In this document: positions 698-34,544 of the stretch, piece by piece
How positions within the stretch are numbered: position 1 is the stretch's first letter
Layout: every line of letters begins with the position of its first letter
Source of the DNA: a virus
Taxonomy: Duplodnaviria > Heunggongvirae > Uroviricota > Caudoviricetes
IMG/VR virus record: IMGVR_UViG_2778261217_000006
Coordinates: 1-39,933 of that record
Length of the DNA stretch: 39,933 nucleotides
Direction: 5' to 3' (one strand)
Translations under genes and position numbers: made by a program
The notes under the pieces: generated by a model
Told to the model about the DNA's origin: nothing
Seen by the model: only the letters and a program-made list of their open reading frames with translations
Database searches by the model: none

Positions 698-1060
698 GGG
701 GCTGATTCTGGATTCGACGGGATTTGCGAAACCCAAGGTGCATGCCGAGGGGCGGTTGGCCTCGTAAAAAGCCGCAAAAAATAGTCGCAAACGACGAAAA
801 CTACGCTTTAGCAGCTTAATAACCTGCTTAGAGCCCTCTCTCCCTAGCCTCCGCTCTTAGGACGGGGATCAAGAGAGGTCAAACCCAAAAGAGATCGCGT
901 GGAAGCCCTGCCTGGGGTTGAAGCGTTAAAACTTAATCAGGCTAGTTTGTTAGTGGCGTGTCCGTCCGCAGCTGGCAAGCGAATGTAAAGACTGACTAAG
1001 CATGTAGTACCGAGGATGTAGGAATTTCGGACGCGGGTTCAACTCCCGCCAGCTCCACCA
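698..1060 (+). ncRNA. ssrA: tmRNA (transfer-messenger RNA, SsrA)
   Basis: Starts GGGGCTGATTCTGGATTCGACGGG, contains the tag-reading-frame region (GCAAACGACGAAAACTACGCTTTAGCAGCTTAA) and ends ...GGTTCAACTCCCGCCAGCTCCACCA; 363 nt. Confidence 0.95.
1016..1060 (+). repeat. attL core: ssrA 3'-end copy of a 45-bp direct repeat
   Basis: Identical 45-mer ATGTAGGAATTTCGGACGCGGGTTCAACTCCCGCCAGCTCCACCA recurs at 34500..34544. Confidence 0.85.
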
Positions 1061-1070
1061 AATAAATCAA

Positions 1071-1100
1071 GGGGTTACGTGAAAGCGTAGCCCCTTTTTC
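1071..1100 (+). terminator. Rho-independent terminator after ssrA (now phage-derived sequence)
   Basis: Hairpin GGGGTTACG / CGTAGCCCC followed by TTTTTC. Confidence 0.55.
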
Positions 1101-1183
1101 TTTGGTAGTGGCGGCAAAATGGCGACAGACTTTTGCGTCCATCTTGCCTGTCGCCATCTTGAAATCATGCAAAGAGGTTTCAC

Positions 1184-1666
1184 ATGGAAGAACTTCACTT
1201 TGTTTACATCAATGCAAATGGTCGTATCGCTGTTCACTCTATACAGAGCATCAGTTATAGCGAAAATCATATACAGGGCATTTGTAAGAACACCGATCGA
1301 ATAAAAACCTTCCGAAAAGACCGCATTCTTAAACAGTACGATTCACCAGAACAAGCCATTCAGGAATGCGCGTCATTCCTCCCCGAAAGCTACTCACATC
1401 TCACTAAGCAGTCTGGTCCGAAAAAAAATACATTCGATGTGTGTTTCACCGGATTTAAGAAAGCAGATAAAGAAAGATTGGTTGATAAGGCGAATGAACA
1501 AGGATTAACGGTAAGAACCTCTATAACCCAAAGCCTTCAGATGCTCTGTTGCGGTTACAATGCAGGCCCATCAAAAGTATCGGCAGCCAGGATGAAAGGC
1601 ACAATCATCATAGATGAGCCTGGCTTTATACATTTTCTTGAAACGGGTGAGATCCCAGATGAATAA
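1184..1666 (+). CDS. Hypothetical protein with C-terminal BRCT-like domain (prophage moron between attL and ogr)
   Basis: ATG preceded by AGAGG. C-terminal ~75 aa (FDVCFTGF...GPSKVSAARMKGTIIIDEPGFIHFLETG) follows the BRCT pattern of NAD-ligase C-termini; N-terminal ~80 aa unrecognised. Confidence 0.6.
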   Translation: MEELHFVYINANGRIAVHSIQSISYSENHIQGICKNTDRIKTFRKDRILKQYDSPEQAIQECASFLPESYSHLTKQSGPKKNTFDVCFTGFKKADKERLVDKANEQGLTVRTSITQSLQMLCCGYNAGPSKVSAARMKGTIIIDEPGFIHFLETGEIPDE

Positions 1667-1692
1667 AAACCTGCCGTAGCAGGTTCTCTTTC

Positions 1693-1911
1693 TCAAAAAT
1701 TCATATGCCCCTGACCACCTGGCAATGGATGTGGAGGAGCAGTAGCAATCAGTGCGGGTGTCACAATAAACCGGACCACTGTTTCATGAGTAACAAAAGT
1801 GCTCCCGCAGTTAATATTTTGGCACTGGCAGTAACGCTCTTTGGTGCTTTCAGTTACTTGAAAACTGCTCCTTGTGTGTGCCGCATGACCACACTTTGGA
1901 CAATTCATCAT
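1693..1911 (-). CDS. ogr: Ogr/Delta-family zinc-finger late-gene transcription activator
   Basis: MNCPKCGHAAHTRSS...ERYCQCQNINCGSTF...PHPLPGG, a C4 zinc finger like P2 Ogr. The ORF track extends to 1956; start chosen at the internal ATG-ATG. Confidence 0.8.
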   Translation of the reverse strand: MMNCPKCGHAAHTRSSFQVTESTKERYCQCQNINCGSTFVTHETVVRFIVTPALIATAPPHPLPGGQGHMNF

Positions 1912-1979
1912 ATCCAGATCCCTACCTTTGCTATCAGAATCATTATAATGATACACAAAATATCAATATTGAGAACACT

Positions 1980-3080
1980 TTATTCCATTTCAAGATCATT
2001 AATCTTCACTTCGAGTTCAATACTGGTTGTAAAACCGTTATCCGGGCTGACGGTATGTGTCAGAGTCGTAATGGTCCATTCCGCATCATCTATCGGCTGT
2101 TTAAAACCACTGACCTTCACAGGCATTTCCGTGTAGAGATCTGCCCGCCCTTCTGCCAGTTGTAGCGAAAATGACGCAACGCCGCGTTGCAGGCGTTCCC
2201 ACTGCATTTTCGCCGCTCGTTCGGCGTTGCTCCGGTTGGCATAAGTGCGATTAAGTACCAGCACGTTTTCATCCGTACCCACCAGGTAATCGCCCTGCTT
2301 CGCTTCTGGCTCTTTCTTCTGCTTCTTAGTTCTGCGCTTACGCTTCACCGTGGTGCTTTCTTTCTTCGCAGGTTCGCGGGTATGCAACCAGCTGGCAATT
2401 ACGCCCGTGTAGGCTCCGCGATCTGCCAGGGTAAATCGGTGACTGTCGCCGTCCTTGCGTGTGATAGTGATCACTGGCAGAGGTTTACCAGTGGCGCTTT
2501 TGCCCTGCCCCTGCCGGATGAATAACAGATTGCCATTTTTCACCGACGCGATGGCACCGTACTGTCGCGCCAGCCGCATCAGAAAACTGCCGTCACTCTC
2601 ATTAGTCTGGTCTATATGCTCCACTGGCTTATCCGACAGGTCTTTACCCAGTGCCATCTTCAGCTTGTGCCGCGCGGCTATTTCCTTCACCACTTCCCCG
2701 ACGGTGGTCTTATGCCACGATTTTTCACGGCGGGTATTCAGCGTTTCCCGAAAATCAGCACTTCGCGCCCGGATAGTCAGGCGGTCCGGTGCGCCAGTGT
2801 GTTCAATCTCGTCCACTGTGAATGCCCCTTTCGGGAAAAGCGGCTGCCCCTTCCAGCCCAGCGCCAGCGTAATAACCGCACCACGGCGCGGCAGCACGAT
2901 TTTTCCGTCAGCGTCATCCAGCTCCAGATCAAGCTGGTCCGCTTCAAAGCCCCGGTTATCCGTCAGCGTCAAACTCATCAGGCGGTTATCCAGCACAGTG
3001 GTGATATCCCTGCCCTCAATACTGATGCTGAATGCGGGAGTTTTGTTGCCTTTGTTAAGCAGTTCAGAGCTGAAATTCAC
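1980..3080 (-). CDS. D: Tail protein gpD
   Basis: 366 aa, P2 gpD-like, at the end of the tail operon next to ogr. Confidence 0.85.
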   Translation of the reverse strand: MNFSSELLNKGNKTPAFSISIEGRDITTVLDNRLMSLTLTDNRGFEADQLDLELDDADGKIVLPRRGAVITLALGWKGQPLFPKGAFTVDEIEHTGAPDRLTIRARSADFRETLNTRREKSWHKTTVGEVVKEIAARHKLKMALGKDLSDKPVEHIDQTNESDGSFLMRLARQYGAIASVKNGNLLFIRQGQGKSATGKPLPVITITRKDGDSHRFTLADRGAYTGVIASWLHTREPAKKESTTVKRKRRTKKQKKEPEAKQGDYLVGTDENVLVLNRTYANRSNAERAAKMQWERLQRGVASFSLQLAEGRADLYTEMPVKVSGFKQPIDDAEWTITTLTHTVSPDNGFTTSIELEVKINDLEME

Positions 3081-3562
3081 GACAGCAGCCCTCCCACCGT
3101 TTTACTGATATCGCTTAAGGCAGACGTTGCCGTGTCCTGCAGATTATTCAGTTGCGCACTGAGATCACCGAACATATCGGACAGGGATTCATCCACTCGT
3201 TTGAGCGACAGGGTGAACTCAATCCGGCGCGGCATACCGTCGCGGAAAAACTCCGTTTTAGTCTGATTCAGTCCCTCAATCACATACATGCCGTAAATCG
3301 TGCCGCTGCCTTCAATCAGGGGCCATGCTTTCCCCTGTTCTGCCATCTGCTCCAGTGCCAGCAACGACAGCCTGCCGCCTGTTATTTCCGGCATAAGAAT
3401 ACCGGAAAGCGTCAGCATGTCGTTTTCCGGTCCCAGAAACTGCGTGGACGGACGTCGGTTTACCCGACTGTTTGCCGCATGTCGCCAGCTGCGTTGATAC
3501 TGCAGTTCCTGATACGGAACGGTGCGCAGCATAAACACGTACAATCCCAGCACCATCATCAT
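3077..3562 (-). CDS. U: Tail protein gpU
   Basis: 161 aa; position and size match P2 gpU; overlaps D and T by 4 nt. Confidence 0.8.
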   Translation of the reverse strand: MMMVLGLYVFMLRTVPYQELQYQRSWRHAANSRVNRRPSTQFLGPENDMLTLSGILMPEITGGRLSLLALEQMAEQGKAWPLIEGSGTIYGMYVIEGLNQTKTEFFRDGMPRRIEFTLSLKRVDESLSDMFGDLSAQLNNLQDTATSALSDISKTVGGLLS

Positions 3563-6500
3563 GCGTCGTATCCCCCCTGATCGCTGTAGTTACTCCTGGC
3601 TTTTGCCTTCAGCCTGCGTTCACGTTCATCAAGCTGGCGTGCCACCTCCCGCGCAATATCCTGCGCACTTTGTCCTGGCTGCGTCTGAATGATGATCTGC
3701 GTCGGTGCCTCAATCCGTTGAACGAGCGGCACAGTGGCTGCGCGACTCACAATTGCTTCTCCACCTTTCGCGGGAAGTGCCAAAGGGTGCAACGGTGGAA
3801 GCTCTGCTGGCGCGGCAGCAACGCCCATCATTCCGGCAACAACGGCAGCCAGTGCAGCTGTATTTCTCCGGCTGGTCACATTTGCCGGGCCGTTAACAAT
3901 TTCCGGCCCGTTTTCACCGACGATGCCAAACTGCCCGCGCGGGATATACCCGCCGCTGTCATACATCCCCGCAAAGCCATATCCCCATGATGGAAAACCA
4001 CCCGATGGCATCATCACTTTACCGTCTGCATTCACCGTCGCAGGTTGCTGACGCGTCACGCTTTCCGGCAGTTTTGCCTTTGCGGCCTCTTTACTGACAA
4101 TGCCGAGCTTCTCCAGCAACCAGGAAACGCCGGATTTCAGGGAGTCCAGCGGATGCATGACCATATTCAGCCCTTCCGCCAGTGCCTCCCCGAATCGCCG
4201 CCCCATTGCCGCTGCGCTCTGCAGTTCGGCAGAGGTCGACTTAACGGGCGTCAGCAGATCAGTAAACCAGCCCCACAGCGCCTGCACTTTGTCGCCAATC
4301 CACTGGAACACGGGCTTAAGCGGTTCGAACGCTGCACTGATGGGACCTGCCGCCGCTTTGAATCCTTCCACCACGCCACCGAGAAATGCGGTGATGGGTT
4401 GCCAGTATTTCCAGACAACCAGCGCCACGCCCGCCAGTGCAGTAACCACAAGACCTATCGGACTGAGCAGAGCACCTAACAGACCAGATATGGCATACAG
4501 GGCAACGCGCAGCATCGCCAGTGGACCAGATGCCAGTACTCGCAGCACCGTGCCTGCGGCGGCCAGTCCACCGCGCAGTACCGCCAGAGGATTCATAAAC
4601 ATCACAGCAACAGCACGTAAACCGGATAATCCAGACCGCAAAAGTACAACCGGCGCACCTGCTACAGTTTTCAGGACATTTCCCGTCAGTGATGCCGTGC
4701 GGCGCAAAGACGACAACGGCGCAGTAAGTAAACCTGCGGCGTTGCCCGATGAAGCAAGCCCGCGTCGCAGCAGTGCCAGTGGTGCGCCAGCCAGCCAGGA
4801 CAACGCGCTGCTGGTTCGAGTTACTGCTGCCGTAACGGAAGATAACGTTTTGATACCCAACACAGAGAATCCCAGACGGATCACTGCCAGCGGCCCCAGC
4901 ACTGCAGCCAGCGCCAGCGCTAAGGTGCCAAGGCCGACGGTAACCGCAGCCACAACAGCCGATGCTTTCATCAGTGTGCCTGTCAGTTCCGGGTTAGCTT
5001 CCACCCAGCGACGCAACGCCCCCGTGACGATTTTCACCGTGTACAGAATATCCATCAGCGGCTGGCGCAGCGTTTCGCCCAGGCTGCTGAAGGTGTTCTG
5101 CGCTCCGGTTTTGACCAGCAACCACTGCGCAGAAAGTGAATCCTTGTTAATGTCGGATTCTTTCTGCATGGAGCCGAGCGCATCATTGCCCGCTGTCAGT
5201 TTTAACTGACGCTGCAGTTCCGGCAGGTTGTTTGCCAGTTTCGCCGCGTCATCGCCAAACTCTTTACCAAACAACATAGTCATGGCAGACAGGCGCTTGT
5301 CCTGCGGCAGCGCGTTTACCTTCTCCAGCACGCGCTGGATGGTTCCCATCGCATCCTTCGTCATCTGCTTTTCAATCACTTCAGGATTGAGTTTCAGCAG
5401 ATTCATCCCTTCAAAGAAACTCTTGCTTTGCATGGTGGCAATGGACAATTCACGCACCATCGCGTTTGCTGCACTGGCTGCAACCTCTGGCGCAGCGCCC
5501 AGTGTCAGGAAGGTGGAACCCAGCGCCGCCGCTTTACGATAATCCAGACGGTCAGCCACACCGCCCAGACGTTGCATCACATCAATGATGTCTGCCCCTT
5601 TCGACATGGCGTTATCATCCAGATAGTTCAGCGCATCACCGAGCTGTTCAATATTGCGGGTGGGGATTTTGTAGAGCTGGGCGATTTTCCCCAGACTTTC
5701 TGACAGTTCATCCGCTGGCAGCTCAAAGGCTGTTGCCGCCTTTGCTGCCGTACTGGCGAAGGCCAGCAGGTCACGTTTCTGATCTTCCCAGCTGTCGTCA
5801 GGGTTTGCGACGTTCATGCGCGCACCACCTTCAACCAGTGCAGCGAAGTCCACCGCACCGTTTTCCATCGGCAACTGTTCGCTGGCAGCCTTGATGGCAT
5901 CCTGCATTTCATAAAAACGTGCAGTGCGGTTGCCATTATCGTCACGCAGACCATTGACCTGCTTTGCCACACCTTTCATGGCATCTTCCATGCTGGTATA
6001 GCTTTTTACTGCCGCCATCACTGGCGCACCCATTGCCAGCCCTGCAGCCGTGGTGGTGGCTCCGGCACCTGCAATACGATCACGCACCTCCAGCGAACGG
6101 GCATAACTGGCACGCGCTGCATTCATCCTGCGCTGAGCTTCCCCCAGTCGCTTCAGCCGCGCCTCCTGTTTCGAAAGTTCCTGGTTATAACGTGATGTTT
6201 CACGGGCTAAACGGGCAGTTGCTCCCGCATCGTCTTTCGCAGAAATTCCCGCCCGGTACAGTTCAGCACGCACAAGCGCCGTCTGCTGCTGCAGCTTTTT
6301 CTGGCGTTCTTCCAGGCGCTGAACAGCCAGCCGTTGACGGCCCAGAGCAACAACCTGACGTTGCGAAGGCGGCCCCATCGCTCCCAGTTCCTGACTGAGC
6401 AAATTTGCACGCTGGCGGGCATAGTTCAGCCTGTCGCCTAATTTCTGATTTTCTGCCTGCAGCTTTCGGAAGCTGTCCAGACTGCTCCCGGCCTGATCAA

Positions 6501-6636
6501 GCTGCTTTATTGCATCGCGGGATTTTTTGACAGCAGCAGCCAGTTCTCTTGAACTGGCCTGCGCAGATCGAAATGGGCGGGTGAGCTTGTCAACCGCATT
6601 AAGAATGACCTGCAGACGCAGGTTGTTATCACTCAT
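3559..6636 (-). CDS. T: Tail tape measure protein gpT
   Basis: 1025 aa, coiled-coil and Ala/Gly-rich hydrophobic repeats typical of tape measure proteins; follows E/E'. Confidence 0.9.
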   Translation of the reverse strand: MSDNNLRLQVILNAVDKLTRPFRSAQASSRELAAAVKKSRDAIKQLDQAGSSLDSFRKLQAENQKLGDRLNYARQRANLLSQELGAMGPPSQRQVVALGRQRLAVQRLEERQKKLQQQTALVRAELYRAGISAKDDAGATARLARETSRYNQELSKQEARLKRLGEAQRRMNAARASYARSLEVRDRIAGAGATTTAAGLAMGAPVMAAVKSYTSMEDAMKGVAKQVNGLRDDNGNRTARFYEMQDAIKAASEQLPMENGAVDFAALVEGGARMNVANPDDSWEDQKRDLLAFASTAAKAATAFELPADELSESLGKIAQLYKIPTRNIEQLGDALNYLDDNAMSKGADIIDVMQRLGGVADRLDYRKAAALGSTFLTLGAAPEVAASAANAMVRELSIATMQSKSFFEGMNLLKLNPEVIEKQMTKDAMGTIQRVLEKVNALPQDKRLSAMTMLFGKEFGDDAAKLANNLPELQRQLKLTAGNDALGSMQKESDINKDSLSAQWLLVKTGAQNTFSSLGETLRQPLMDILYTVKIVTGALRRWVEANPELTGTLMKASAVVAAVTVGLGTLALALAAVLGPLAVIRLGFSVLGIKTLSSVTAAVTRTSSALSWLAGAPLALLRRGLASSGNAAGLLTAPLSSLRRTASLTGNVLKTVAGAPVVLLRSGLSGLRAVAVMFMNPLAVLRGGLAAAGTVLRVLASGPLAMLRVALYAISGLLGALLSPIGLVVTALAGVALVVWKYWQPITAFLGGVVEGFKAAAGPISAAFEPLKPVFQWIGDKVQALWGWFTDLLTPVKSTSAELQSAAAMGRRFGEALAEGLNMVMHPLDSLKSGVSWLLEKLGIVSKEAAKAKLPESVTRQQPATVNADGKVMMPSGGFPSWGYGFAGMYDSGGYIPRGQFGIVGENGPEIVNGPANVTSRRNTAALAAVVAGMMGVAAAPAELPPLHPLALPAKGGEAIVSRAATVPLVQRIEAPTQIIIQTQPGQSAQDIAREVARQLDERERRLKAKARSNYSDQGGYDA

Positions 6637-7644: not shown

Positions 7645-8817
7645 TTACGCGCTGACCTGGCTGGCGAAATTCACCAGGTACTGATCGGTGATGCGCTGAC
7701 GCAGCATCAGGTTTTCAAGTGGCGGCACTGGCGTGTAGTCGTAGTCGATGGTGAGTTTTCCGGCTTTCAGCGTGTCTTTGTCGTTCACCGACTCATCCAG
7801 CCAGCAATCACCACCAATGAGATAGCCCTGACTGACCAGGCTGCGCATTTTGGCGCGGATACCCTCGATAATGTCGCGCGCCAGCGACGGGTTAAGCGGT
7901 TTATCCACCGCCCACATGTGTGCTTCTGCCATCGTGTCCATCAGCACCTGCGCCGTGCGGGTGTAGTTTTCGAAGGCAAAGAGCGGGTCATCACTCAGGC
8001 AGCGGGAACCCCAGAAGCGGAAACCGTCTTTACGCACAAGCGTGGTGACGTCGTTCTGGTTCAGCAGACCTGCATCGGTTGCCGGGTCCTGCAGATCCCA
8101 GAACACATCTGCAGAAATTCCGGTGACACCGTTCACGCCCACGTTGGACAGGCTTTTGTGCCATCCGGTCTGCTCATCAATTTTGGCGCGCAGACCAAGC
8201 GCACGGGCGGTAGCATATGCCGTTGCTTCGGCATTCAGCACCGTGTCCCAGCCAGTAAAGTCAGGCCAGATCAGCATCCCTTCGCGCTGGCTGAAGTTTT
8301 CGCGGTAAGTGATCGCCTCCTGCACTGTCTTGCAGCCATACGCTGACAGGTAAGCAAATCCACGCAGGCTTTGCGCCACGCTCAGCAACTCAGTAGCTAC
8401 CGCCTTGGTGTCGTGGCCTGGCACGCCGAGAATGCGCGGTTTAACGCCGAGCTGTGACTGGGCAGATAACAGGGCTTTCATACCTGTTTTTTTACCTTCA
8501 GCAGTCACTGCGCCGATGATATTGGTCGTGGTTTCGTCTTCCGTTTCACCCTGCGGCACACGCACAACAATGGTCACGGGTTTTGCCTGGTCAGCGATGG
8601 CATCCAGCGAACGGGCCAGAGTACCTGACTCACCCGCTTTACCGCTGGCAGTCAGCACATCAGTGATCAGCACGGGTTTATTAAGAGGAAACATTTTTGC
8701 ATCGGCATCATCGCCCGTGCAGACCATACCCACGATGGCGGTGCTCACCGTGGTAATAGATCGGGTGCCTTCGTTGACTTCAACAACGCGCACCCCGTGG
8801 TGGTAATCCTGAGCCAT
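7645..8817 (-). CDS. FI: Contractile tail sheath protein gpFI
   Basis: 390 aa, P2 FI-like. Confidence 0.9.
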
Positions 8818-8959: not shown

Positions 8960-9532
8960 TCAGGGGGATTCATTGATCTTATTTGCCGGAAATTTTCTAT
9001 AAATGGTAGAAACGCCTACATCAAAAATCAGTGCAATACGCTGTCTTGATTCTCCGGCCTCGAGTAAACGCCCAATCTGTGCCCACTGTTCGGTGGTCAA
9101 CTTAGGACGGCGTCCACCTACTCTGCCTTTGGCACGAGCTGCAGCCAGCCCTGCCCTGGTACGTTCAACTATCAGTTCGCGTTCCATTTCAGCCAGGGCA
9201 CCCATGACATGAAAAAAGAAACGGCCCATTGGGGTACTGGTATCAATACTGTCAGTCAGGCTTCTGAAATTCACACCACGCTGGCGCAACTCTTCTATCA
9301 GCGTAACAAGATGCCGCATACTGCGCCCCAACCTGTCCAGCTTCCAGACAACTAGCGTGTCTCCTGCCGATAGTGTCCTGAGTAGTTTTTTCAGCCCCGG
9401 TCTGTCGGACTTAGTGCCACTGATTTTGTCCTCAAAAATCCGCTCACATCCCGCGCAGTTCAGTGCATTACGTTGCAAATCGGTGTTCTGGTCATTTGTT
9501 GACACGCGTACATAGCCAATAAGCATGATCAT
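8960..9532 (-). CDS. Serine DNA invertase (Hin/Gin/Cin/Pin family)
   Basis: N-terminal resolvase catalytic domain (GYVRVSTNDQNTDLQ, VWKLDRLGRS) and C-terminal HTH; lies immediately beside the invertible tail-fibre segment. Confidence 0.9.
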   Translation of the reverse strand: MIMLIGYVRVSTNDQNTDLQRNALNCAGCERIFEDKISGTKSDRPGLKKLLRTLSAGDTLVVWKLDRLGRSMRHLVTLIEELRQRGVNFRSLTDSIDTSTPMGRFFFHVMGALAEMERELIVERTRAGLAAARAKGRVGGRRPKLTTEQWAQIGRLLEAGESRQRIALIFDVGVSTIYRKFPANKINESP

Positions 9533-9553
9533 CCCCCTGAATAAAAACCGGAG

Positions 9554-10093
9554 ATGATGCCAGTTAGCTGTTACCTCTGCATTTTCTTAAACGTTGGTTT
9601 GGGAGAAGGCTCTGCATTACCTGTTGGTGTCCCTGTTCCGTGGCCTTCAGCCACTCCGCCAACAGGCTGGCTGAAATGCAATGGTGCAGCTTTTTCTGCT
9701 GAAGAATACCCGGAACTGGCAAAAGTTTACCCGACAAATAAATTGCCTGATTTACGTGGTGAGTTTATTCGTGGCTGGGATGACGGGCGGGGGATTGATA
9801 CAGGTCGCTCTATTTTAAGTATTCAGGGATATGCAACGGAGGATCATGCTCATGGATTACCGTCAAGATCCACGATTGTGACTGATGCAACTATTAATTT
9901 CTATTTTGATGAAAGCTGGGTAAATAGTGGCACTGACATTATCAAAAGAGGAAACACAAACGATGCCGGATTACCAGCACCGGATTATGGAACCTTTAAA
10001 ACATATAAACAATCAGTGGCTGGTTTAGGTGCCGCAGCCTCAGAAACGCGTCCGCGTAATATTGCATTTAACTATATCGTGAGGGCAGCCTGA
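9554..10093 (+). CDS. Alternative tail-fibre C-terminal variable exon (silent in this orientation)
   Basis: Begins GLGEG..VPVPWPS.TPP.GWL.CNG..F....YPEL, a tail-collar-type fibre tip; shares the GLGEG junction with H at the crossover site; the true N-terminus would be supplied by H after inversion. Confidence 0.6.
   Translation: MMPVSCYLCIFLNVGLGEGSALPVGVPVPWPSATPPTGWLKCNGAAFSAEEYPELAKVYPTNKLPDLRGEFIRGWDDGRGIDTGRSILSIQGYATEDHAHGLPSRSTIVTDATINFYFDESWVNSGTDIIKRGNTNDAGLPAPDYGTFKTYKQSVAGLGAAASETRPRNIAFNYIVRAA
9582..9607. repeat. Left hix/gix-like 26-bp inversion crossover site
   Basis: TTTTCTTAAACG TT GGTTTGGGAGAA; the 16-bp core 9594..9609 is a perfect inverted repeat of 11407..11422. Confidence 0.65.
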
Positions 10094-10695
10094 TGCATAA
10101 AGCAATATTAAATAGTGAGCTCATTGCAACAAAGGCAGGGGATGTTACCGTTTATAACTATGATGGTGAAACACGGGAATATATTTCCACTTCAAATGAA
10201 TATCTTGCCGTTGGTGTCGGCATTCCGGCATGTTCCTGTTTAGATGCCCCTGGCACACATAAGGCTGGTTATGCAATCTGCCGTTCTGCAGATTTTAACT
10301 CATGGGAATATGTGCCAGACCATCGCGGTGAAACGGTCTATAGCACCGAAACAGGAGAATCAAAAGAAATCACCGCTCCGGGTGATTACCCTGAAAATAC
10401 AACCACTATCGCCCTATTAACGCCATATGATAAATGGGATGGTGAGAAATGGGTGACGGATATCGAGGCACAGCATAGCGCCGCAGTAGATGCAGCAGAA
10501 GCACAGCACCAGTCGCTGATTGATACTGCAATGGCTTCCATTAGTCTGATTCAACTGAAATTGCAGGCCGGGAGGAAGCTGACGCAGACAGAAACCACCC
10601 GACTAAACGCTGTGCTGGATTACATTGACGCGGTGACGGCAACGGATACCAGCACCGCGCCGGATGTCATCTGGCCTGAACTGCCGGAGGCGTAG
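10093..10695 (+). CDS. Tail fibre assembly protein, alternative orientation (Tfa')
   Basis: 200 aa with C-terminal ...DTSTAPDVIWPELPEA typical of Mu U / P2 G chaperones. Confidence 0.7.
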   Translation: MHKAILNSELIATKAGDVTVYNYDGETREYISTSNEYLAVGVGIPACSCLDAPGTHKAGYAICRSADFNSWEYVPDHRGETVYSTETGESKEITAPGDYPENTTTIALLTPYDKWDGEKWVTDIEAQHSAAVDAAEAQHQSLIDTAMASISLIQLKLQAGRKLTQTETTRLNAVLDYIDAVTATDTSTAPDVIWPELPEA

Positions 10696-11080
10696 GCCAT
10701 TCAATATCTGGTGCACTGGATGTATCAACCAGTTCCAGTGCTTCCAGATAATCCAGCCACAAATTATATTGTTTCAGCTCATCTTCTTTAAGTCTTCCCA
10801 ATGCAGCCTTACCCTGCCACTGTCTGCTATTGATAAAATCAGTTGCATCAGAGATAAGCATCTGCTTTTGAAAGTTCGCATCTGCGACTTCATCATCATG
10901 AGTACGGATAACCTCTTTAATAGAAGGAGGAAAAACAGAAAAATCGATCACGCCTCCTTCAGCTTGAGATTTTAATAATGACTGCCAGTGTTCTGCCGTT
11001 ATTTCTTTAGAATCTGGCGGAATGATGCCACAGCCATCCATAAAAAAACCAACGGTATTTAAGCAACAGTATATTTTCAT
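10667..11080 (-). CDS. Tail fibre assembly protein, expressed orientation (Tfa)
   Basis: C-terminal ...LVDTSSAPDIEWPTPPA; start set at the ATG just after the H stop (the track ORF runs further upstream to 11299 in a frame overlapping H). Confidence 0.65.
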   Translation of the reverse strand: MKIYCCLNTVGFFMDGCGIIPPDSKEITAEHWQSLLKSQAEGGVIDFSVFPPSIKEVIRTHDDEVADANFQKQMLISDATDFINSRQWQGKAALGRLKEDELKQYNLWLDYLEALELVDTSSAPDIEWPTPPAVQAR

Positions 11081-11081
11081 C

Positions 11082-23716: not shown

Positions 23717-23719
23717 ATG

Positions 23720-23755
23720 TACTGTTTGTTCAAATTGAACACACAGTACTTTTTA
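23720..23755 (+). terminator. Hairpin with T-run after Q (likely terminator between the convergent Q and cargo operon)
   Basis: GTACTGTTTGTTCAA-A-TTGAACACACAGTAC followed by TTTTT. Confidence 0.4.
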
Positions 23756-23760
23756 ATATA

Positions 23761-24600: not shown

Positions 24601-24610
24601 AAATGACTAT

Positions 24611-25252
24611 CTACTCCTTCATTCCTGAACCAGGTATAGAAACAGACGACATCCACCCGTCAGTTGGCGTGCTTTTGCTCCCAGTTAAATTCGCTTTTAC
24701 ACCTGCAATTTTAAGCTGGCGAGCTTCATCGATTAAGAGATTCACAGACGACTTCCAGTCATCGCCTCGCTTAATCAAATCAATAATAGATAAGCCGTCA
24801 AACGCTTTCATTTTTGACATCAACTTAGCATTTTCTACTCCTGCTTTGTTAAAGCGATCGGCTAATCTACTGAGTTCAATGATGTAACCAGCTTTCCCAA
24901 TATCATCAGGCTGACTGTCACCGGATAACCATTTGTATAATGCTTGCCTAGTAATACCCAAATCTTTAGCCAGTTCTGACATTGATGGAGAAAGAGTATC
25001 CCTAACATTACTTAAATGTTCTGAAATTGTCCTGATATCAACAGGGTCATTATCTGTATCCCCATGATTTTCAAGTTTAGATAACCCAAAATGGACTTTA
25101 GGTTGTACAAAACCACGCCACTGGTTTACATCCTTCACAGAATAGCTCGCTCCTGTTCCACTCAGGAACATAGAGGTTGCAACAAATAACGCTCCAGCAA
25201 TAGGAGCTAAACCAGGAGTCCCATAGCAACTACCAGTCATGGATTGACGCAT
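24611..25252 (-). CDS. Hypothetical protein with central XRE-type helix-turn-helix, cargo operon gene 2 (213 aa)
   Basis: Start set at the ATG preceded by GGGGAGGTG (the track ORF begins at a GTG at 25279); HTH MSELAKDLGITRQALYKWLSG; hydrophobic Gly-rich N-terminal segment. Confidence 0.7.
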   Translation of the reverse strand: MRQSMTGSCYGTPGLAPIAGALFVATSMFLSGTGASYSVKDVNQWRGFVQPKVHFGLSKLENHGDTDNDPVDIRTISEHLSNVRDTLSPSMSELAKDLGITRQALYKWLSGDSQPDDIGKAGYIIELSRLADRFNKAGVENAKLMSKMKAFDGLSIIDLIKRGDDWKSSVNLLIDEARQLKIAGVKANLTGSKSTPTDGWMSSVSIPGSGMKE

Positions 25253-25269
25253 ATTACACCTCCCCGGTG

Positions 25270-26076
25270 TTATACCCACCTATTAATGGCATGTTGGGAT
25301 ACCATTTTATTAAAGCTTTCCTTTACAACACCATGTAGTGAATTGAACTGTTGCTCAATTGAATCTATTTCTGGCGGCATGTTTCCTTCAACATAATGGT
25401 CTGTATCAATAATTCCATGCCAAAGAGCCTTGTCGCTCCTGAACCGCTCAAGCATTTCAACCCCAAAGGGCAAGATATCTGGAGGAAAACTCAACTGACC
25501 AAACATCTTATGCAAACGAGTTACTAAAAAGCCAGTACTTATAACAGGACCAACATTTGTTTGGAAAACCATCTCGTTAACCGATTGTATCGGAGATAAA
25601 TCCAAATCTACACCATGTAAGCCATTGCAAAGGTACTGCTCAATCTTTTCACCCTCACTAGGTATTACGGCATCCAGATACCTCAAACCAAGTCTTGTCA
25701 AAAGGGCTGGGTTAGCATGTTCTATTACGACAGACAATCCTTCCATCAATGCTTTAAAGAACGGTTCATGTTCTTTGTAATCAGTCGTCTGGAAAGTAAT
25801 AAAATCGTTACCCAAGACAAAACCTGAAGTCTTAGTGATGTCAGACATATACCACTGCTGGACCATTTCAAAAGATGGCTGAGGCGATTCACCGGGCGTA
25901 TTAACATCAAACACCATTTGCATTGCCTCTCTTCTTTCAAAGAGTGGATAGCCCCTTAAACGCAATGCTTCCTGAATGTCATCGACATACTTTTTCATCG
26001 CCTTGATAGGCGTAAACTTAACTTGCGCCAGCACATAGTATACGGGTGCATTGGACATGCGATTGCTGTCACTCAT
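25270..26076 (-). CDS. Hypothetical protein, cargo operon gene 1 (268 aa)
   Basis: ATG preceded by AGGAGG; first gene of a co-directional trio; no recognisable P2/186 core homolog. Confidence 0.75.
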   Translation of the reverse strand: MSDSNRMSNAPVYYVLAQVKFTPIKAMKKYVDDIQEALRLRGYPLFERREAMQMVFDVNTPGESPQPSFEMVQQWYMSDITKTSGFVLGNDFITFQTTDYKEHEPFFKALMEGLSVVIEHANPALLTRLGLRYLDAVIPSEGEKIEQYLCNGLHGVDLDLSPIQSVNEMVFQTNVGPVISTGFLVTRLHKMFGQLSFPPDILPFGVEMLERFRSDKALWHGIIDTDHYVEGNMPPEIDSIEQQFNSLHGVVKESFNKMVSQHAINRWV

Positions 26077-26211
26077 GTCGCCCTCCTAATTTTAAAATCC
26101 ATCAATAACGTTCTTTTCAATATAGTTTACATCTTGGTTGACACATTAACCATAACAAAGTTCCATCAAAACATCTTTTGATAACTTTATATTTAAACTA
26201 CCGGGCGCGCG

Positions 26212-27021: not shown

Positions 27022-29436
27022 TCAATACAGGTTCCGCCACTTATCATCTTCCTGCAAACGCTGGTTCCGATAGAAGATACGCAGGCCTGCTCCTGACGGA
27101 ATACTGCCGCCGCGAATGAGTAAATCGACCTCTTTCTCGCTGCCATCAAATCCTCTGGACTTCAGTTCATAGACGAGCTGCTGTCGTTGATGGTCAGTAA
27201 TTCGCTGTTTGTAGTCTCTACGCCGTTTCGGTTTCACCAGGCGTAACCTTGCAGCCAGTTCCCGGCGCTCTTTTTTGTTCATACTGTGCAGGTAATCGTG
27301 CAACTCCTTGTCATCCATGCGGGTGATATCCGTTCTGGTATCCCCATCAGCTGATTTGTCTTTCCCTTGTTGGTACAAATTTTCAGCAAGGGGACAGTTA
27401 TTGCCACGAGTCCAAGGGGCGCAAGCGCCCTGGTCGGCTGCCGCCTCCTGAACGTCAACGGCCTTACGAACCATTTTCCACTTCACTGCATGAGTGCAGA
27501 TCTTGCCCTCTGCAATGGGTGACCAGATGCCATAAATACGAATACCGTGATCGCCATAGGCGGTCGGCTCTTCGTTAATTTCATAAGCAGTTCTGATGAG
27601 GTGATATTTACGGGGAACCAGTACACCTCCCTGCTTCATGATATAGGTGGCAAAACAACCAGCATCAGCAGCAGCCAGAATGGCATCAAGGCGCGGGTTA
27701 TCCAGTACCGGCACACCTGCTTTTTTGTCACCCTGCTGCCTTGCCGCCTGACCAGCCAGCAATCGCAGTTCACGGTAAGCCTGACGCCCCGGAATGCCAA
27801 AGAAGCGGAATTGCTGAACACGATGCAAAGACGCCCAGGCATTCACGTATTCAGCGTTATCACGCAGAGATTTACCCGTTTCCTTGCTGATCTCGCCAGC
27901 CAGACCACGCCCGTCAATGTTCTTGCTGATATATTTCGCGATGTAGCTTGTCGGCGTTCCTTTGCGCGGGTTAATCAACTCAGACTTAAAGCGTGGTCCC
28001 GTGTTATTCCCCAGCTCCTCGCGGTCTTCACGAATGGCAAACTTACGCAACAAAGCAGTAATGGCGCGGCGATCTTTTTTGCGCATGAAACACAACAGGT
28101 GCCAGTGAACTGTGCCGTCATGATGCGGCTCAGCCACCCGCACGCCATACCAGCGCAACCCGGCTTTGTGCATAGCCTTACGAAATGCAGCAAACATACC
28201 GACCAGATAATCGCTGCTTTGTCTTACTGTCGCGTTGGTCCAGGTCGGGTTTGGCCTGCCGTTATTTAGCGTGGAATGGAAACGTGACGGACAGGTGATG
28301 GTGTAGAAAACGGCGCAGTCACCACGCATTTCCGCGATAAGCTCCAGACCTTTAACGCAGGCCATCATCTCATTGCGGCGATGCGCCGGGTTGCTGCTGC
28401 TGGCGTTTACCACATCCTCCATGTCCAGCATGTCGCCGTCTTCGTTCACCAGTTCATGAGAACGGAAAAACTCCAGCGACTTACGGCGCTGCTCACGTTT
28501 ATGCATCACGGCTTCATAGCTGACATAGGGAGATGCTTTTTTGCTGACCAGACAGACAGCACGCAACTGCTCTTCCCGCCATTCGCAACGCATCTTCCAT
28601 AATTTCCGATACCACCAGTCGGCGCACAGCATACGCGCCAGCGAACCCGGAATGAGTTCATAGGGCACAGGTTTGCGGCGGTTTCTTTTCCGGCGGAGTT
28701 GCTCAAACGCAGGCGGTATGACATCCAGTCGCAGGGTTTCTGCTGCCACCTTTTCCCATGTCTTGCGGATTTCTTCCGGCTTAACATCATCGGAGGCGTA
28801 CAAATCACCACAAGCGGCATCAAGACACATGCTCATATGCGCAGCGACAAGGGTGGACAGGCGTTTCACCTGATCCTGACTCATTTCAGGCAGGATCAGC
28901 AGACCATCCAGCCCTTCATGGCTTGCCATAAAACGAAAAGATGCAGATAGCTGGCTGTCGCGTACATGCTCCAGTCGTTCCAGGCATGGCTTAATCGTCT
29001 CACGCAAATAGCGGGAATAAGCCTTTGGCCTGCCCAGGTTGCTGAAGTATTTAATACGTTGCATCAGCGGCTTGCTGATATGGGAAGGCTGGGCGTTGAC
29101 ATCCGCCAGAATGACCATGTCTGGATTAAAACGCTGCTGCTCATGCGCCAGCTTTGCCCGGCTAATTAGCTTATCCTGCTCCATTTCGCGCTGGACAGGA
29201 TCACGGGATTCATTAAAGAAATAACGCTCCCAGACCTGATCACTCAGTGCCTCGCGGCGCAGTTGTTCCTGCTCGTTATCGGCAGCGTACAGAGTGATCA
29301 GATTTGAAAGCGCAGAAACCGGCGCAACTTCCGCCGGGTCCAGATAAGGGTTAATGGCCTTTTTCGGGCTGTTCCATGAGAATGCTGCGGCAGCCTCGTT
29401 AAAGCCGCAGCAGTTGTTCATATCGGCATGACTCAT
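27022..29436 (-). CDS. A: Replication initiation endonuclease gpA (rolling-circle)
   Basis: 804 aa, P2/186 A-like. Confidence 0.9.
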
Positions 29437-30290
29437 GCACGTACTCCGTACACGGCAGAACTGTCCACGCCACGCGAATAATCAAATCCCACCCAGCAGC
29501 GCGGCCCGGAAACAGCAATGATTTCTGTTGCTGATTTACCCTCGCCAGCTGCCACACCGATGCTGCGTTTTACCTTGATATAGTGGTGAGTAAAATTGCG
29601 ATACAGCGAACGGATCAGGGATGTGTCACTGTTAGAAACAATGACCGGATGTCCTTCTGATGACCGATGTTCAAGAACGGATGCCAGGTGATACTGGTCA
29701 TCTTCAGTGAAACCATCAGTGTGATAGCCGGAAAACGTACCGTCATACGGCGGATCGCAATACACCACATCCCCCGCCTTCAACATCGCCAGCGTTTCAT
29801 CAAAGCTGGCGCAGATAAACGTTGCTCGCTGGGCTTTTTCTGCAAATGCGCGAATTTCTTTTTCAGGGAAATACGGATTTTTATAATTACCGTAGGGAAT
29901 GTTGAAATGCCCGCTCTTGTTATAGCGACATAAACCACGGTAACCGTGACGATTGAGATACAGGAAATATACTGCTTTCATGAAATCAGTAATTTCAGTT
30001 GAGTAATTAAACTCCTGCCTTATGTTGTAATAAGCCATCTCCCTGTTTGCGTTCTCAAATAAAACTCTGGCGCGAGATATAAACGATTCACAATCAGCAG
30101 CAACCTTTTTATAGAGGTTGATTAAATCAGGATTAATATCCGCAACAAGATAGCTGGGGTACTCCGTCTCCATCATCACTGCACAGGAACCCGCGAAAGG
30201 TTCAACCAGTCGCGGGCCAGCAGGAAGATGCTTTTTCAGTTCGGACATAATGGCGGTTTTATTTCCCGCCCATTTCAGGATGGTGCTCAT
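29433..30290 (-). CDS. DNA adenine methyltransferase (Dam family)
   Basis: ILKWAGNK and DPPY motifs; start set at the ATG with GGAGGTG upstream (the track ORF begins at 30350). Confidence 0.85.
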
Positions 30291-30514
30291 ACAGCACCTC
30301 CGTTGTAATGTTTGCCTTTCAGCTCTGCGATTTCCTGACAGGTAATGCAAAGCTGCACACCCGGAATGGCACGACGGCGTGCTGGCGGAATTGGCGCTTC
30401 ACACTCAACGCAAAGCACGCGGGACACGCCCGGCGTTTTGGCACGGGCAGCACGGATATGACGTTGGCGTTCTTCTTCAACTCGCTGCTGTACGAGATCC
30501 ATTGCATCAGCCAT
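30287..30514 (-). CDS. TraR/DksA-family C4 zinc-finger protein
   Basis: 75 aa with CVECEAPIP...CITCQ. Confidence 0.7.
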   Translation of the reverse strand: MADAMDLVQQRVEEERQRHIRAARAKTPGVSRVLCVECEAPIPPARRRAIPGVQLCITCQEIAELKGKHYNGGAV

Positions 30515-31388: not shown

Positions 31389-31410
31389 AATTCATATCCC
31401 CCAAACGCAG

Positions 31411-31802: not shown

Positions 31803-31809
31803 AAGCACC

Positions 31810-32319: not shown

Positions 32320-32351
32320 GCTGCCCCCTTAGAAAGTTCTCATAATTGAAC

Positions 32352-32600
32352 TTAGCCACCAACGATGACATTAAAATTGAAATTGGATTGGCCCATGTTT
32401 TTCCTGACTTGTTCCTTTTTGTACTCAAGGTAACGTATACATACTCTGTCTTTCGGTTTTTCCTTTTTTTCCAAGAACTTAGCGAGCTTACCATTATGAA
32501 TCATTTGATATACCGAACCGCGAGAGCGGCCTTCCCATTCCGCGAACTCTGCAGGTGTCGCCATCACTTTTGGTACACGAATTGAAATGTCGTTGCTCAT
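32352..32600 (-). CDS. Apl/Cox-like small DNA-binding regulator/excisionase, first lytic-operon gene
   Basis: 82 aa basic protein, divergent from cI. Confidence 0.55.
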   Translation of the reverse strand: MSNDISIRVPKVMATPAEFAEWEGRSRGSVYQMIHNGKLAKFLEKKEKPKDRVCIRYLEYKKEQVRKNMGQSNFNFNVIVGG

Positions 32601-32777
32601 AGTGCAGTATCTCTTGGTTTAAGCTCGTTTTATGATGTTTAACCCCAACTTCTAAACTCTCATATTAGAAGTTAAATACAAAAATACGATCTCGTTATTG
32701 GATTGTCAAATGGAGAGTTCATCTTGAAGATTAGTACAGGTGCAAATACGGGAGGGAGAGAGACCATCAAAAGGCTG

Positions 32778-33353
32778 ATGACAGCCTATGGTTTCAACAC
32801 TCAGATAGCGTTGGTTGAACACCTCGAAGCATCAAAAAGCACCATGGCAAACAGGATGTTACGTGATAGCTTCCCTGCTGACTGGGTTATTCAATGTGCC
32901 CTTGAAACAGGTATTTCTCTTCTTTGGCTGACAACGGGCCAAGGGGAAATGTATCCTCAAACAGAAGAAAAAAATAAGTTCAAAAACGAGAGTTCACCTA
33001 CAGTTCGCCCCCTTTCAAAGATAGTTATCCCATCAGTAAGGCAGGCAACCATTGAGAACGGAACGCTCGAAGAGATGGGGGATGTTTTCCTTGATCAGAC
33101 TTTGATACCCGGAAAAGCCGAATATTGTTTGTACGTCAAAGCTAACGACGGCAATTACATTGTTGATACATCAACAAAACAGCTTAGTAACGGAATTTGG
33201 CTCATAGACATCGACGGTATGAAAAACATCGTCAAAATTGCGCGCATACCTGGAAACAAAATAGTAGTTAACCAAGATGACACTTCATTTGAATGTTCTG
33301 TAGATGATGTGGAAGTCGTAGGACGTGCAGTCAAAGTAATCAAGAACCTCTAA
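32778..33353 (+). CDS. cI: Immunity repressor CI (186 CI-like, no S24 peptidase domain)
   Basis: N-terminal HTH ending CALETGISLLWLTTGQGE; start set at the ATG at 32778 giving 191 aa (the track ORF begins at a TTG at 32703). Confidence 0.7.
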   Translation: MTAYGFNTQIALVEHLEASKSTMANRMLRDSFPADWVIQCALETGISLLWLTTGQGEMYPQTEEKNKFKNESSPTVRPLSKIVIPSVRQATIENGTLEEMGDVFLDQTLIPGKAEYCLYVKANDGNYIVDTSTKQLSNGIWLIDIDGMKNIVKIARIPGNKIVVNQDDTSFECSVDDVEVVGRAVKVIKNL

Positions 33354-33356
33354 CTT

Positions 33357-34382
33357 ATGACCATCAGAAAACAGCCGAACGGAAAGTGGTTATGTGAATG
33401 CTACCCAAACGGGAGAGATGGCAAACGCGTACGCAAACAATTTGCGACGAAAGGCGAAGCCATTGCGTTTGAGAATTTCACCATGGATGAGGTAAACAAG
33501 AAACCTTGGCTGGGAGAAAAGGAAGATCGGCGACAACTGTCAGAAGTGATTGAGCAATGGTATTCCCTGTACGGTCAGACACTCGCTGACCCTAAGCGAT
33601 TAATGGCTAAGTTAAAAATCATTTGTAATGGACTTGGCGATCCCATCGCTTCTGAATTGACAGCAGGTGATTTCACAAAGTACCGGGAAGCCAGATTAAA
33701 AGGTGAGGTCAAAAACGAAGATGGCGTGCTCATGTCACCGGTTAAGCCCAGAACGGTGAACCTTGAACAGCGTAACCTATCCTCAGTTTTTGGCACACTG
33801 AAAAAGCTGGGACATTGGTCTGCACCCAACCCCCTCGCCGGTCTGCCAACTTTCAAAATTGCAGAAGGTGAACTGGCGTTCCTTGCTGCTGATGAAATCA
33901 AACGCCTGCTTGACGCATGTGCTGAATCTCAAAGTCCCAGTCTGCTAATGATTGCCAAGATTTGCCTGGCTACCGGGGCAAGATGGAGCGAAGCCGAAAA
34001 CCTGCAAGGTAACCAGATATCAAAGTATCGAATTACCTATACCAAAACAAAAGGAAAGAAAAACCGAACTGTTCCTATTTCTCAGGAACTGTATGAAGAA
34101 TTACCCAAAAACAGAGGAAAGTTATTCACACCATGCCGAAAGGCTTTTGAGCGTGCGGTAAAACGAGCTGGAATTGAACTACCTGAAGGTCAATGTACCC
34201 ACGTTCTGCGCCACACTTTCGCCAGTCACTTTATGATGAACGGCGGAAACATTTTGGTATTGAGGGATATTTTAGGACACGCTGATATTAAAATGACCAT
34301 GATTTATGCCCATTTTGCACCGGATCATCTGGAAGATGCCGTTACCAAAAATCCACTTCATAACCTCAACTGGCATCGCTAA
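33357..34382 (+). CDS. int: Tyrosine integrase (P2/186 type)
   Basis: 341 aa with catalytic RHRY context (ARWSE, HVLRHTF, MIYAHF); 4 nt after cI and about 120 bp from the att repeat. Confidence 0.9.
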   Translation: MTIRKQPNGKWLCECYPNGRDGKRVRKQFATKGEAIAFENFTMDEVNKKPWLGEKEDRRQLSEVIEQWYSLYGQTLADPKRLMAKLKIICNGLGDPIASELTAGDFTKYREARLKGEVKNEDGVLMSPVKPRTVNLEQRNLSSVFGTLKKLGHWSAPNPLAGLPTFKIAEGELAFLAADEIKRLLDACAESQSPSLLMIAKICLATGARWSEAENLQGNQISKYRITYTKTKGKKNRTVPISQELYEELPKNRGKLFTPCRKAFERAVKRAGIELPEGQCTHVLRHTFASHFMMNGGNILVLRDILGHADIKMTMIYAHFAPDHLEDAVTKNPLHNLNWHR

Positions 34383-34499
34383 TAAATGGCGGCATTTTGG
34401 CGGCAGAACACTAAAAACAAGTAAAACAAGCAAATACAGACTAACACTAACACAATGATTTAAAATAAAAAAATATGATTTTGTTAGTATAAAAATGGT

Positions 34500-34544
34500 A
34501 TGTAGGAATTTCGGACGCGGGTTCAACTCCCGCCAGCTCCACCA
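34500..34544 (+). repeat. attR core: second copy of the 45-bp ssrA 3'-end repeat; also the left boundary of the next island
   Basis: Identical to 1016..1060. Confidence 0.85.

Follow-up and report, generated by a model that had tools for sequence, protein, structure and literature searches.

The DNA analysed here, the whole 39,933-nucleotide viral record IMGVR_UViG_2778261217_000006 (hereafter the window), contains the 3′ end of a bacterial tmRNA gene (ssrA) twice, with a different integrase gene on either side of the second copy. This arrangement raises the question of which elements occupy the ssrA site, in which order they arrived, and which of them may still be able to leave it.

The ssrA gene and its repeated 3′ end

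The window opens with chromosomal sequence carrying smpB (1–483, + strand; a 160-aa ORF), which matches the smpB–ssrA region of Escherichia coli SJ7, followed downstream by a single complete tmRNA gene, ssrA (698–1060, + strand; tag ANDENYALAA), on which ARAGORN and Rfam agree (RF00023, 295.8 bits, full length). The 45-mer with which ssrA ends, ATGTAGGAATTTCGGACGCGGGTTCAACTCCCGCCAGCTCCACCA, occurs exactly twice in the window, at 1016–1060 and 34500–34544, both on the + strand; none would be expected by chance, and 100 dinucleotide-preserving shuffles of the window gave 0 matches. The initial annotation had reported an exact 45-bp copy of the ssrA 3′ end 33.5 kb downstream, and this observation is fully reproduced. 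Because the two copies are directly preceded by different bases (g versus t), the length of the repeat is exactly 45 bp. The left copy, which spans 17 nt followed by the T-arm, the 3′ acceptor strand, and the CCA of the tRNA-like domain of tmRNA, is assigned as the attL core, since the same core is also found in free-phage attP sites, and the right copy as the attR core, a piece of the ssrA 3′ end that has been displaced. Under the attP-integration model, the attL core within ssrA now derives in part or in whole from the phage. A second tmRNA-like gene at 34500–34544 was considered and rejected, as Rfam at its gathering threshold reports 698–1060 only. Such displaced ssrA fragments are at times annotated by PGAP as a 177-nt tmRNA.

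An apparently intact Fels-2-type prophage between the repeats

The two repeats are the attachment sites (attL and attR) of a P2/186-like prophage of the Fels-2 type, 33.4 kb long and apparently intact, whose boundaries fall at 1016/1061 and 34499/34544. Its body (1184–34382) is defined by Pfam and PHROG matches and by collinearity with annotated prophages and phages. The gene order starts with a 160-aa BRCT/ligase-like ORF, ogr, gpD, gpU, the tape measure, and the tube and sheath genes, continues with an invertase and its invertible tail-fibre segment, the baseplate, lysis, and head genes, the terminase, and the portal, and ends with a 2.5-kb cargo insert, a DinI-like gene, gpA, Dam, CII, Apl, CI, and Int. 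The P2-type set recognised by Pfam and PHROG between the repeats thus includes gpD, T, FI/FII, N, O, P, Q, and A, as well as CI, Apl, and CII. The Apl/Cox-type excisionase and switch protein (32352–32600, − strand; PHROG excisionase, Cox-like excisionase) is 72% identical to Fels-2 Apl. The CI repressor (32703–33353, + strand; PHROG transcriptional repressor), whose counterpart in the collinear prophage of E. coli UTAK-18 is annotated as ‘phage repressor protein CI’, lies directly upstream of int (33357–34382, + strand), which encodes a 341-aa tyrosine integrase with Int_N and Phage_integrase domains and 95% identity to Fels-2 Int over its full length, and which ends 117 bp before the attR core. 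With the full P2-type gene set and this Int, the earlier description of the repeats as bracketing a P2/186-like prophage with its integrase beside the right copy is confirmed. No phage record covering at least 80% of the right third of the prophage was found, and no complete E. coli genome covers at least 80% of its right half (best match, 78%). A PADLOC search of the islet described below and of the prophage cargo returned a single weak match, PDC-S48 (E = 4e-7), to the 160-aa ORF at 1184–1666.

It may be asked whether the repeat simply marks a past integration, with both elements now inert and the prophage no longer excising or making particles. The exact prophage is absent among the sequenced phages, which would fit such a loss of activity: the best phage record covers 91% of the left two-thirds at 96.8% identity. 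However, all the P2-type structural, lysis, replication, and switch genes are full-length and collinear with those of annotated prophages and of Escherichia phage Cartapus, none of Int, Apl, and CI is disrupted, the two att cores match at all 45 positions, and Yersinia phage MLG42 has a closely related attP in its complete genome record. We therefore hold general inertness of the locus to be decidedly improbable. Because Int, Apl, CI, and perfect att cores are all retained, the prophage should, as far as its sequence can tell, be capable of precise excision, of which the neighbouring islet is probably incapable.

The islet beyond the right repeat

Immediately after the attR core begins the left end of a second element (34545–34709, + strand), a segment that in SJ7 directly follows the ssrA CCA. 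It leads into the gene for a 409-aa P4-family (IntA-like) tyrosine integrase (34710–35939, + strand), starting 166 bp past the core, with the longest possible ORF beginning at 34668. The assertion that a P4-type integrase begins another island is well founded: the protein contains the three diagnostic domains (Arm-DNA-bind_3, Phage_int_M, and Phage_integrase), shares 34% identity with P4 Int over the full length and 48% with IntA of the K-12 element CP4-57, and scores 440.6 bits against NCBIfam NF007246 (cut-off 434). Kinship between this integrase and the prophage Int was rejected, there being no significant similarity between the two (E = 17). The remaining cargo (35978–39933) comprises a 138-aa ORF and, both assigned by domain matches, the gene for a Response_reg_2 protein (36466–38232, − strand) and a HEF_HK/HATPase_c gene (38216–39933, − strand), which is frameshifted here and reaches the window edge. 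The element is thus an islet of about 5.4 kb with four genes.

None of these four genes matches an AlpA/Vis-type excisionase in Pfam, NCBIfam, or PHROGs. As had been suggested, a third repeat that would delimit the island was sought: the terminal 14, 17, 18, and 24 nt of ssrA were compared, with mismatches and indels permitted, against the window and the genomes of SJ7, UTAK-18, WP3-S18-ESBL-09, and K-12. No such repeat was found in these genomes, which yielded the known copies and chance 14-mers within unrelated genes only; for the sequence past the window, the missing attR of the islet rests on two related genomes, SJ7 and UTAK-18. In both of them the distal end of the islet is a truncated ygaQ, and homology to K-12 resumes inside ygaQ. 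Nor is the islet ancestral chromosome, as judged from genome comparison, because it is variable between strains: E. coli TUM13936 does not have it, and K-12 carries CP4-57 instead. An immobilised remnant is the reading that suits it best. The tandem is real, and since the islet has neither an excisionase nor a third ssrA repeat and ends at a truncated ygaQ, only the prophage looks mobile. The initial view of two integrases using ssrA in series accordingly stands as a history of the site, and falls as a description of two elements that are both excisable today. It is conceivable, though not likely, that the islet integrase, intact and conserved despite the missing attR, might still act on both of the ssrA-derived cores around the prophage.

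Order of the two integrations

The locus is found in several occupancy states across E. coli. In SJ7, which carries the islet only, ssrA directly abuts the islet and the flanks are joined through one ssrA 3′ end, representing a precise empty site for the phage; the window is 100% identical to SJ7 over 1–1060 and 99.9% identical over 34500–39933. UTAK-18 carries both phage and islet, TUM13936 carries the phage followed by native ypjA-side sequence, with the islet absent, and in K-12, CP4-57 occupies the place of the islet. Among 5,426 complete E. coli genomes, the left junction is present in 171 and this right junction in 51, and the islet is present at a coverage of at least 80% in 560.

We consider it very likely that the 3′ end of the E. 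coli ssrA was the target of site-specific integration twice in succession, first by a P4-type island and then by a Fels-2-type phage. In the first event, a P4/CP4-57-family island would have entered the extreme 3′ end of ssrA, and a later deletion into ygaQ may have removed its distal part, the attR, and any excisionase, leaving the fixed islet of about 5.4 kb with its integrase, the 138-aa ORF, and the Response_reg_2/HEF_HK gene pair. The second event, as comparison with related genomes shows, was the integration of a Fels-2-type P2/186-like temperate phage into the same gene; in its attP, two arms flank a 45-bp sequence identical to the ssrA 3′ terminus. Recombination of this attP with ssrA, mediated by Int, placed the phage between the ssrA body and the islet, regenerated the tmRNA sequence without change, and displaced the old 45-bp ssrA end together with its terminator 33.5 kb downstream, beside int. 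The order would be fixed by the lengths of the target sequences: the identity block of the P4-type element appears to be only about the last 17–19 bp of ssrA, as estimated from the K-12 attR (psaA), which requires two single-base deletions for alignment to the ssrA end. As the phage needs about 45 bp, it would therefore enter only on the ssrA-proximal side of the islet; the strand-exchange sites of both integrases are placed here according to how far the identity reaches.

This order is argued from parsimony, and the reverse has to be weighed against it, namely that the Fels-2-type phage first entered an island-free ssrA and that the P4-type island then integrated into the phage attR and decayed later. 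Such an entry into the attR of a resident phage is possible in principle, because both phage att cores, and thus the attR, include the short P4-type target (the last 17–19 bp); according to PMC7192596, a newcomer may integrate at either end of an element already in place, and phage-only genomes do exist. Yet an islet-only genome matches the window flanks at 100% and 99.9% identity, and the islet is far more widespread than its junction with this phage (560 genomes at coverage of at least 80% versus 51). The islet, moreover, shows decay, lacking an attR and an excisionase and adjoining a truncated gene, whereas the prophage is intact and its repeats are perfect, and the same islet also adjoins unrelated ssrA phages, so that phage-first integration would demand repeated independent acquisition of the islet followed by identical decay. 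An islet arriving after the phage consequently seems to us most improbable.

Attachment arms and the ssrA terminator

The sequences next to the cores allow the phage attP to be compared with those of free phages. The P′ arm (1061–1183, + strand), directly after the attL core, and the P arm (34385–34499, + strand), directly before the attR core, are both contiguous with the core in Cartapus and MLG42, in which an identical 45-bp core lies between matching P and P′ arms; the MLG42 record is a circular complete phage genome. In the Fels-2 record, a split attP is annotated at its two ends. The P′ arm contains paired TGGCGRCA repeats (1109–1116 and 1120–1127), which are candidate arm-type Int binding sites, and the P arm contains paired TGGCGGCA repeats (34387–34394 and 34398–34405).

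The P′ arm further contains a hairpin (1069–1096; −19.8 kcal/mol) that starts 8 nt past the ssrA CCA and is followed by a T-run. It is predicted to be the terminator that now closes the ssrA transcription unit, in a position that integration of the phage gave it, and its DNA is that of the phage P′ arm. The proposal that phage sequence now supplies the ssrA terminator thus agrees with the core-adjacent position of this hairpin in free phage genomes, the terminator function itself being predicted. In phage-free strains, the hairpin following ssrA corresponds to 34594–34608 here, with a larger stem from about 34579, and relative to the phage hairpin the native ssrA terminator lies about 35–50 nt (islet) or about 150 nt (native sequence) further downstream. 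One might imagine a dual use of the P′-arm hairpin, which would terminate or stabilise the CI–int transcript in the phage and replace the native ssrA terminator in the lysogen, although we regard this as improbable. If it were true, the 3′ maturation or abundance of tmRNA could shift in the lysogen, while int would gain the old ssrA terminator, an integration-dependent rewiring of int and tmRNA expression resembling that of lambda sib.

Comparison with known systems

The arrangement at this locus is ordinary and already documented, with published accounts of Fels-2 and SopEPhi integrating into ssrA and of tandem arrays at that gene, and it opens no new question. It adds one more case of ssrA as a busy integration hotspot and illustrates why the length of target-gene sequence contained in each attP limits the possible order of elements in an array. 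Its value is mainly in annotation: exact prophage boundaries are set, the 45-bp copy is recognised as a displaced fragment rather than a second tmRNA gene, and a probably active phage can be told apart from an islet that appears fixed.

Fels-2 and SopEPhi of Salmonella, reported to integrate into ssrA (PMC3448106), and the Elveevirus phages such as Cartapus are P2/186-like, ssrA-integrating phages, as is the prophage described here. The likeness to Fels-2 extends to Int (95% identical), Apl (72%), and the CI–int–attP order, and in the Fels-2 record int likewise lies beside the attP half at the record end. The prophage differs from its Fels-2-type relatives in its E. coli host, in a 2.5-kb insert of its own, which carries three genes and is situated between portal and gpA, and in its invertible tail-fibre module.

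The islet is worth comparing with CP4-57 of K-12, whose IntA acts at ssrA (PMC3105296). In both, the ssrA 3′ end is followed directly by a P4-family integrase gene in the matching orientation (48% identity), and CP4-57 and the left end of the islet share about 92% identity over the first ~150 bp past ssrA, a stretch that includes the terminator hairpin. However, CP4-57 is 22 kb long, contains AlpA, has an attL in ssrA and a degenerate 17-bp attR (psaA), and excises experimentally, whereas the islet, 5.4 kb long and with other cargo, lacks both AlpA and an attR and adjoins a truncated ygaQ. The same islet is found beside the ssrA-integrated Stx prophages CP-1639 (AJ304858; Creuzburg et al. 2005), an Stx phage cited for ssrA integration, and phi467 (LN997803). 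In both records it lies distal to the phage, its integrase being 92% identical in CP-1639, where intA is truncated by IS elements, and 100% identical in phi467. GenBank AJ304858 labels it a ‘remnant integrative element’ with intA, a 138-aa ORF, a 582-aa protein, and a histidine-kinase-like protein. The proximal phage in these two records is a lambdoid Stx phage, in contrast to the Fels-2-type myovirus present here.

A mechanism for tandem arrays at tRNA and tmRNA genes is set out in PMC7192596, which refers to Williams 2003 (‘Traffic at the tmRNA gene’). Such arrays (Williams 2003; Islander, TIGER) consist of the intact target, a first element, a displaced target fragment, and a second element, with each element having its own integrase, a pattern like that observed here. 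The strict Islander definition requires a gene fragment for every member of an array (PMC4383910); two integrases are accompanied here by only one displaced fragment, and as the islet has no target fragment of its own, Islander would call only the prophage. Altogether, the region works like a tandem array with a decayed distal member.

Results

The window holds a single tmRNA gene (ssrA; 698–1060, + strand, tag ANDENYALAA), called by ARAGORN in agreement with a full-length RF00023 match of 295.8 bits, and no other Rfam match rises above the gathering threshold anywhere in the window. The last 45 nt of ssrA, ATGTAGGAATTTCGGACGCGGGTTCAACTCCCGCCAGCTCCACCA, which as read from the sequence comprise the T-arm, 3′ acceptor strand, discriminator base and CCA together with 17 nt upstream, occur exactly twice and on the same strand (1016–1060 and 34500–34544), with zero matches across 100 dinucleotide-preserving shuffles; the initial annotation was thus correct that an exact copy of the ssrA 3′ end recurs far downstream. 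Because the bases beside the two copies differ on both the left and the right, the repeat length is exactly 45 bp. In E. coli WP3-S18-ESBL-09, and likewise in several further genomes, RefSeq/PGAP labels a 177-nt stretch (5983–6159, corresponding to window ~34368–34544) as 'ssrA tmRNA', made up of the displaced 45-bp fragment and the phage DNA to its left (the P arm). A tmRNA at this position was rejected, Rfam at the gathering threshold finding none there in the window, and the PGAP label is an annotation artefact.

The interval between the repeats has a G+C content of ~55%, against 50% in the smpB–ssrA flank, and its ORFs make up a complete P2-type set, including gpD (1980–3080), tape measure (3559–6636), sheath (7645–8817), tail fibre (11082–12470), large terminase (20913–22679), portal (22676–23716), GPA replication nuclease (27022–29436), Dam methylase (29433–30350), Apl/Cox excisionase (32352–32600), CI repressor (32703–33353) and tyrosine integrase (Int; 33357–34382). 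The Int is 95% identical to that of Fels-2 over all 341 residues and the Apl 72% identical to its Fels-2 counterpart. This gene set and the Int identity bear out the description of a P2/186-like prophage bracketed by the repeats, with its integrase beside the right copy. The annotated prophage of E. coli UTAK-18 is collinear at 89–99% identity, except for some short gaps and an insert of 2.5 kb, and Peduoviridae records including phages 500465-1 and Cartapus are 96–98% identical across most late genes.

The insert (23690–26204), missing in UTAK-18, is of low G+C (~41%), lies between the portal and DinI-like/gpA genes, and encodes on the minus strand ORFs of 279 aa (no family), 222 aa (weak HTH match) and 268 aa (TIGR04255 family), for which PADLOC gave zero matches. 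In other strains, genes annotated over the corresponding prophage stretch include ones for TIR, DUF262 or P-loop NTPase proteins, perhaps in this very slot, and the position of the insert points to an anti-phage or accessory module that is uncharacterised. In the region 8960–12470, a serine invertase (8960–9532, − strand) adjoins a segment with 28-nt inverted repeats at its ends (9582–9609/11407–11434); on this segment are alternative C-termini for the tail fibre and, in opposite orientations, two chaperone genes of the Caudo_TAP type, an arrangement that looks like a Gin/Cin-type host-range switch.

When the right arm and core (34300–34544) were joined to the left arm (1061–1300) and searched against a phage collection, the joined sequence was contiguous, in one piece at 91.5% identity, in Escherichia phage Cartapus and also contiguous in Yersinia phage vB_YpM_MLG42, the record of which is a circular complete genome; in both, the identical 45-mer is flanked by homologous arms. 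Both ends of the Fels-2 record are annotated as attP halves. E. coli SJ7 is 100% identical to window 1–1060 across smpB–ssrA and, from the ssrA 3′ end onward, 99.9% identical to window 34500–39933, and provides a precise empty site for the prophage. At ssrA, TUM13936 carries a prophage whose Int is of the same kind, its right core being followed by the ypjA-side sequence that in K-12 follows the attR of CP4-57, which indicates that the phage occurs independently of the islet neighbour. These genomes and the window-type cases give three states in E. coli, namely islet alone, phage alone and both. On such comparisons the two repeats are attL and attR of the prophage. The right core of TUM13936 (5116–5160) starts with ACGTAGG instead of ATGTAGG, so that the identity block there is 43 bp; this mismatch, at the P-arm edge, is consistent with strand exchange 3′ of core position 2. 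One further record, a separate entry at replicon level (NZ_CP019275.1/CP019275.1, E. coli 13P477T, 37,446 bp), is listed under E. coli and again in the phage collection. Its prophage is closely related and comes with >200 bp of ssrA, and the record is 100% identical to window 860–1260; an artefact of assembly or classification is more probable here than a free phage.

Phage DNA (the P′ arm) begins straight after 1060, and 8 nt past the CCA a hairpin with a 12-bp stem (1069–1096; predicted −19.8 kcal/mol) precedes TTTTTCTTT; the stem is kept in Cartapus and in MLG42, where an A-U pair replaces one G·U pair. The hairpin found after ssrA in strains with the islet but no phage is here located past the displaced fragment (34594–34608), inside a larger stem. 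The proposal that phage sequence now supplies the ssrA terminator is therefore right as sequence anatomy; an effect of the swapped sequence on tmRNA or int expression is speculative. Both arms carry pairs of TGGCGRCA 11 bp apart (34387–34394/34398–34405 and 1109–1116/1120–1127), conserved in Cartapus and MLG42. Across the window, 14 copies of the motif are seen where 4.1 would be expected. By analogy to the P2/186 attP organisation summarised in PMC3448106, the arm pairs are candidate arm-type Int binding sites. Also in the P′ arm, a 160-aa ORF immediately adjoins attL (1184–1666, +) and keeps this attP-adjacent place in Cartapus, MLG42 and 500465-1. Its PHROG hit is to family 2561 ('DNA ligase'), and there are weak matches to the LigA C-terminal tail, PADLOC PDC-S48 and a model of DEDDh exonucleases.

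After the right core, the gene that starts at 34710 codes for an integrase of 409 aa. It has Arm-DNA-bind_3, Phage_int_M and Phage_integrase domains, scores above the NCBIfam NF007246 cut-off (440.6 versus 434 bits) and is 34% identical to P4 Int over its full length (E = 2e-82); similarity to the Int of the prophage is not detectable. These features, together with 48% identity to K-12 IntA of CP4-57, justify the name 'P4-type' previously given to it. The islet (island 2) is small and further encodes a 138-aa ORF and, at 36466–39933 (−), two proteins unmatched in PADLOC as a pair, one with Response_reg_2 (PF19192) and one with HEF_HK/HATPase_c. Relative to SJ7, the HATPase gene is frameshifted by one T fewer in the T7 run at 39221, probably reflecting a pseudogene or a homopolymer sequencing error. 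K-12 homology returns in the ygaQ pseudogene ~120 bp past the islet genes in SJ7, and in UTAK-18 an IS3 intervenes. A third repeat delimiting island 2, sought downstream with the final 14–24 nt of the ssrA gene and with mismatches and indels tolerated, is not found in SJ7 or UTAK-18, the two genomes reaching past the window, nor is an excisionase present among the islet genes. The islet is missing in TUM13936 and replaced by CP4-57 in K-12, and is not ancestral chromosome; it no longer resembles an excisable element and is best taken as an immobilised remnant.

Discussion

The observation of the initial annotation is confirmed and its interpretation, serial use of the tmRNA 3′ end by two integrases, is supported, with the caveat that island 2 appears immobilised. 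In the simplest history, the islet would have integrated first and the phage second, since the window flanks match a genome with the islet alone almost exactly, since the islet is found at ≥80% coverage in 560 complete genomes versus 51 with the phage–islet junction, and since the islet has decayed while the phage remains intact and its repeats are perfect. A P4-type attR presumably keeps ~17–19 bp of ssrA versus the 45-bp phage identity block, so that the full phage target would exist only at the ssrA-proximal site. The reverse order is formally conceivable, as the short P4-type target is present in either core of the phage and a second element can enter at either end (PMC7192596), but would demand repeated identical decay of the islet. 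Among the complete E. coli genomes, 5,426 in number, 171 have the left junction and 51 have the right junction with the islet.

CP4-57 of K-12, the excision of which has been shown experimentally to leave a one-base change in ssrA (PMC3105296; also PMC5148205), encodes AlpA and has a degenerate attR of 17 bp (annotated psaA), whereas the islet has neither excisionase nor third repeat. In GenBank, the record for Stx1 prophage CP-1639 labels these same four genes a "remnant integrative element"; CP-1639 is the Stx phage that PMC8065619 cites for integration into ssrA. The islet also stands at the end of the Stx phage phi467 record. Integration of Fels-2 and SopEPhi into ssrA was published by Pelludat et al. 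2003, as cited in PMC3448106. No integration target is more enriched than the tmRNA gene (PMC4383910, PMC7192596), and tandem arrays there, described by Williams (2003), are routine in Islander and TIGER (PMC4383910, PMC7192596). Under the strict Islander rule, by which every member of an array must have a gene fragment of its own (PMC4383910), only the prophage would qualify here. Altogether, nothing at the locus departs from known biology, and the region works like a tandem array with a decayed distal member.
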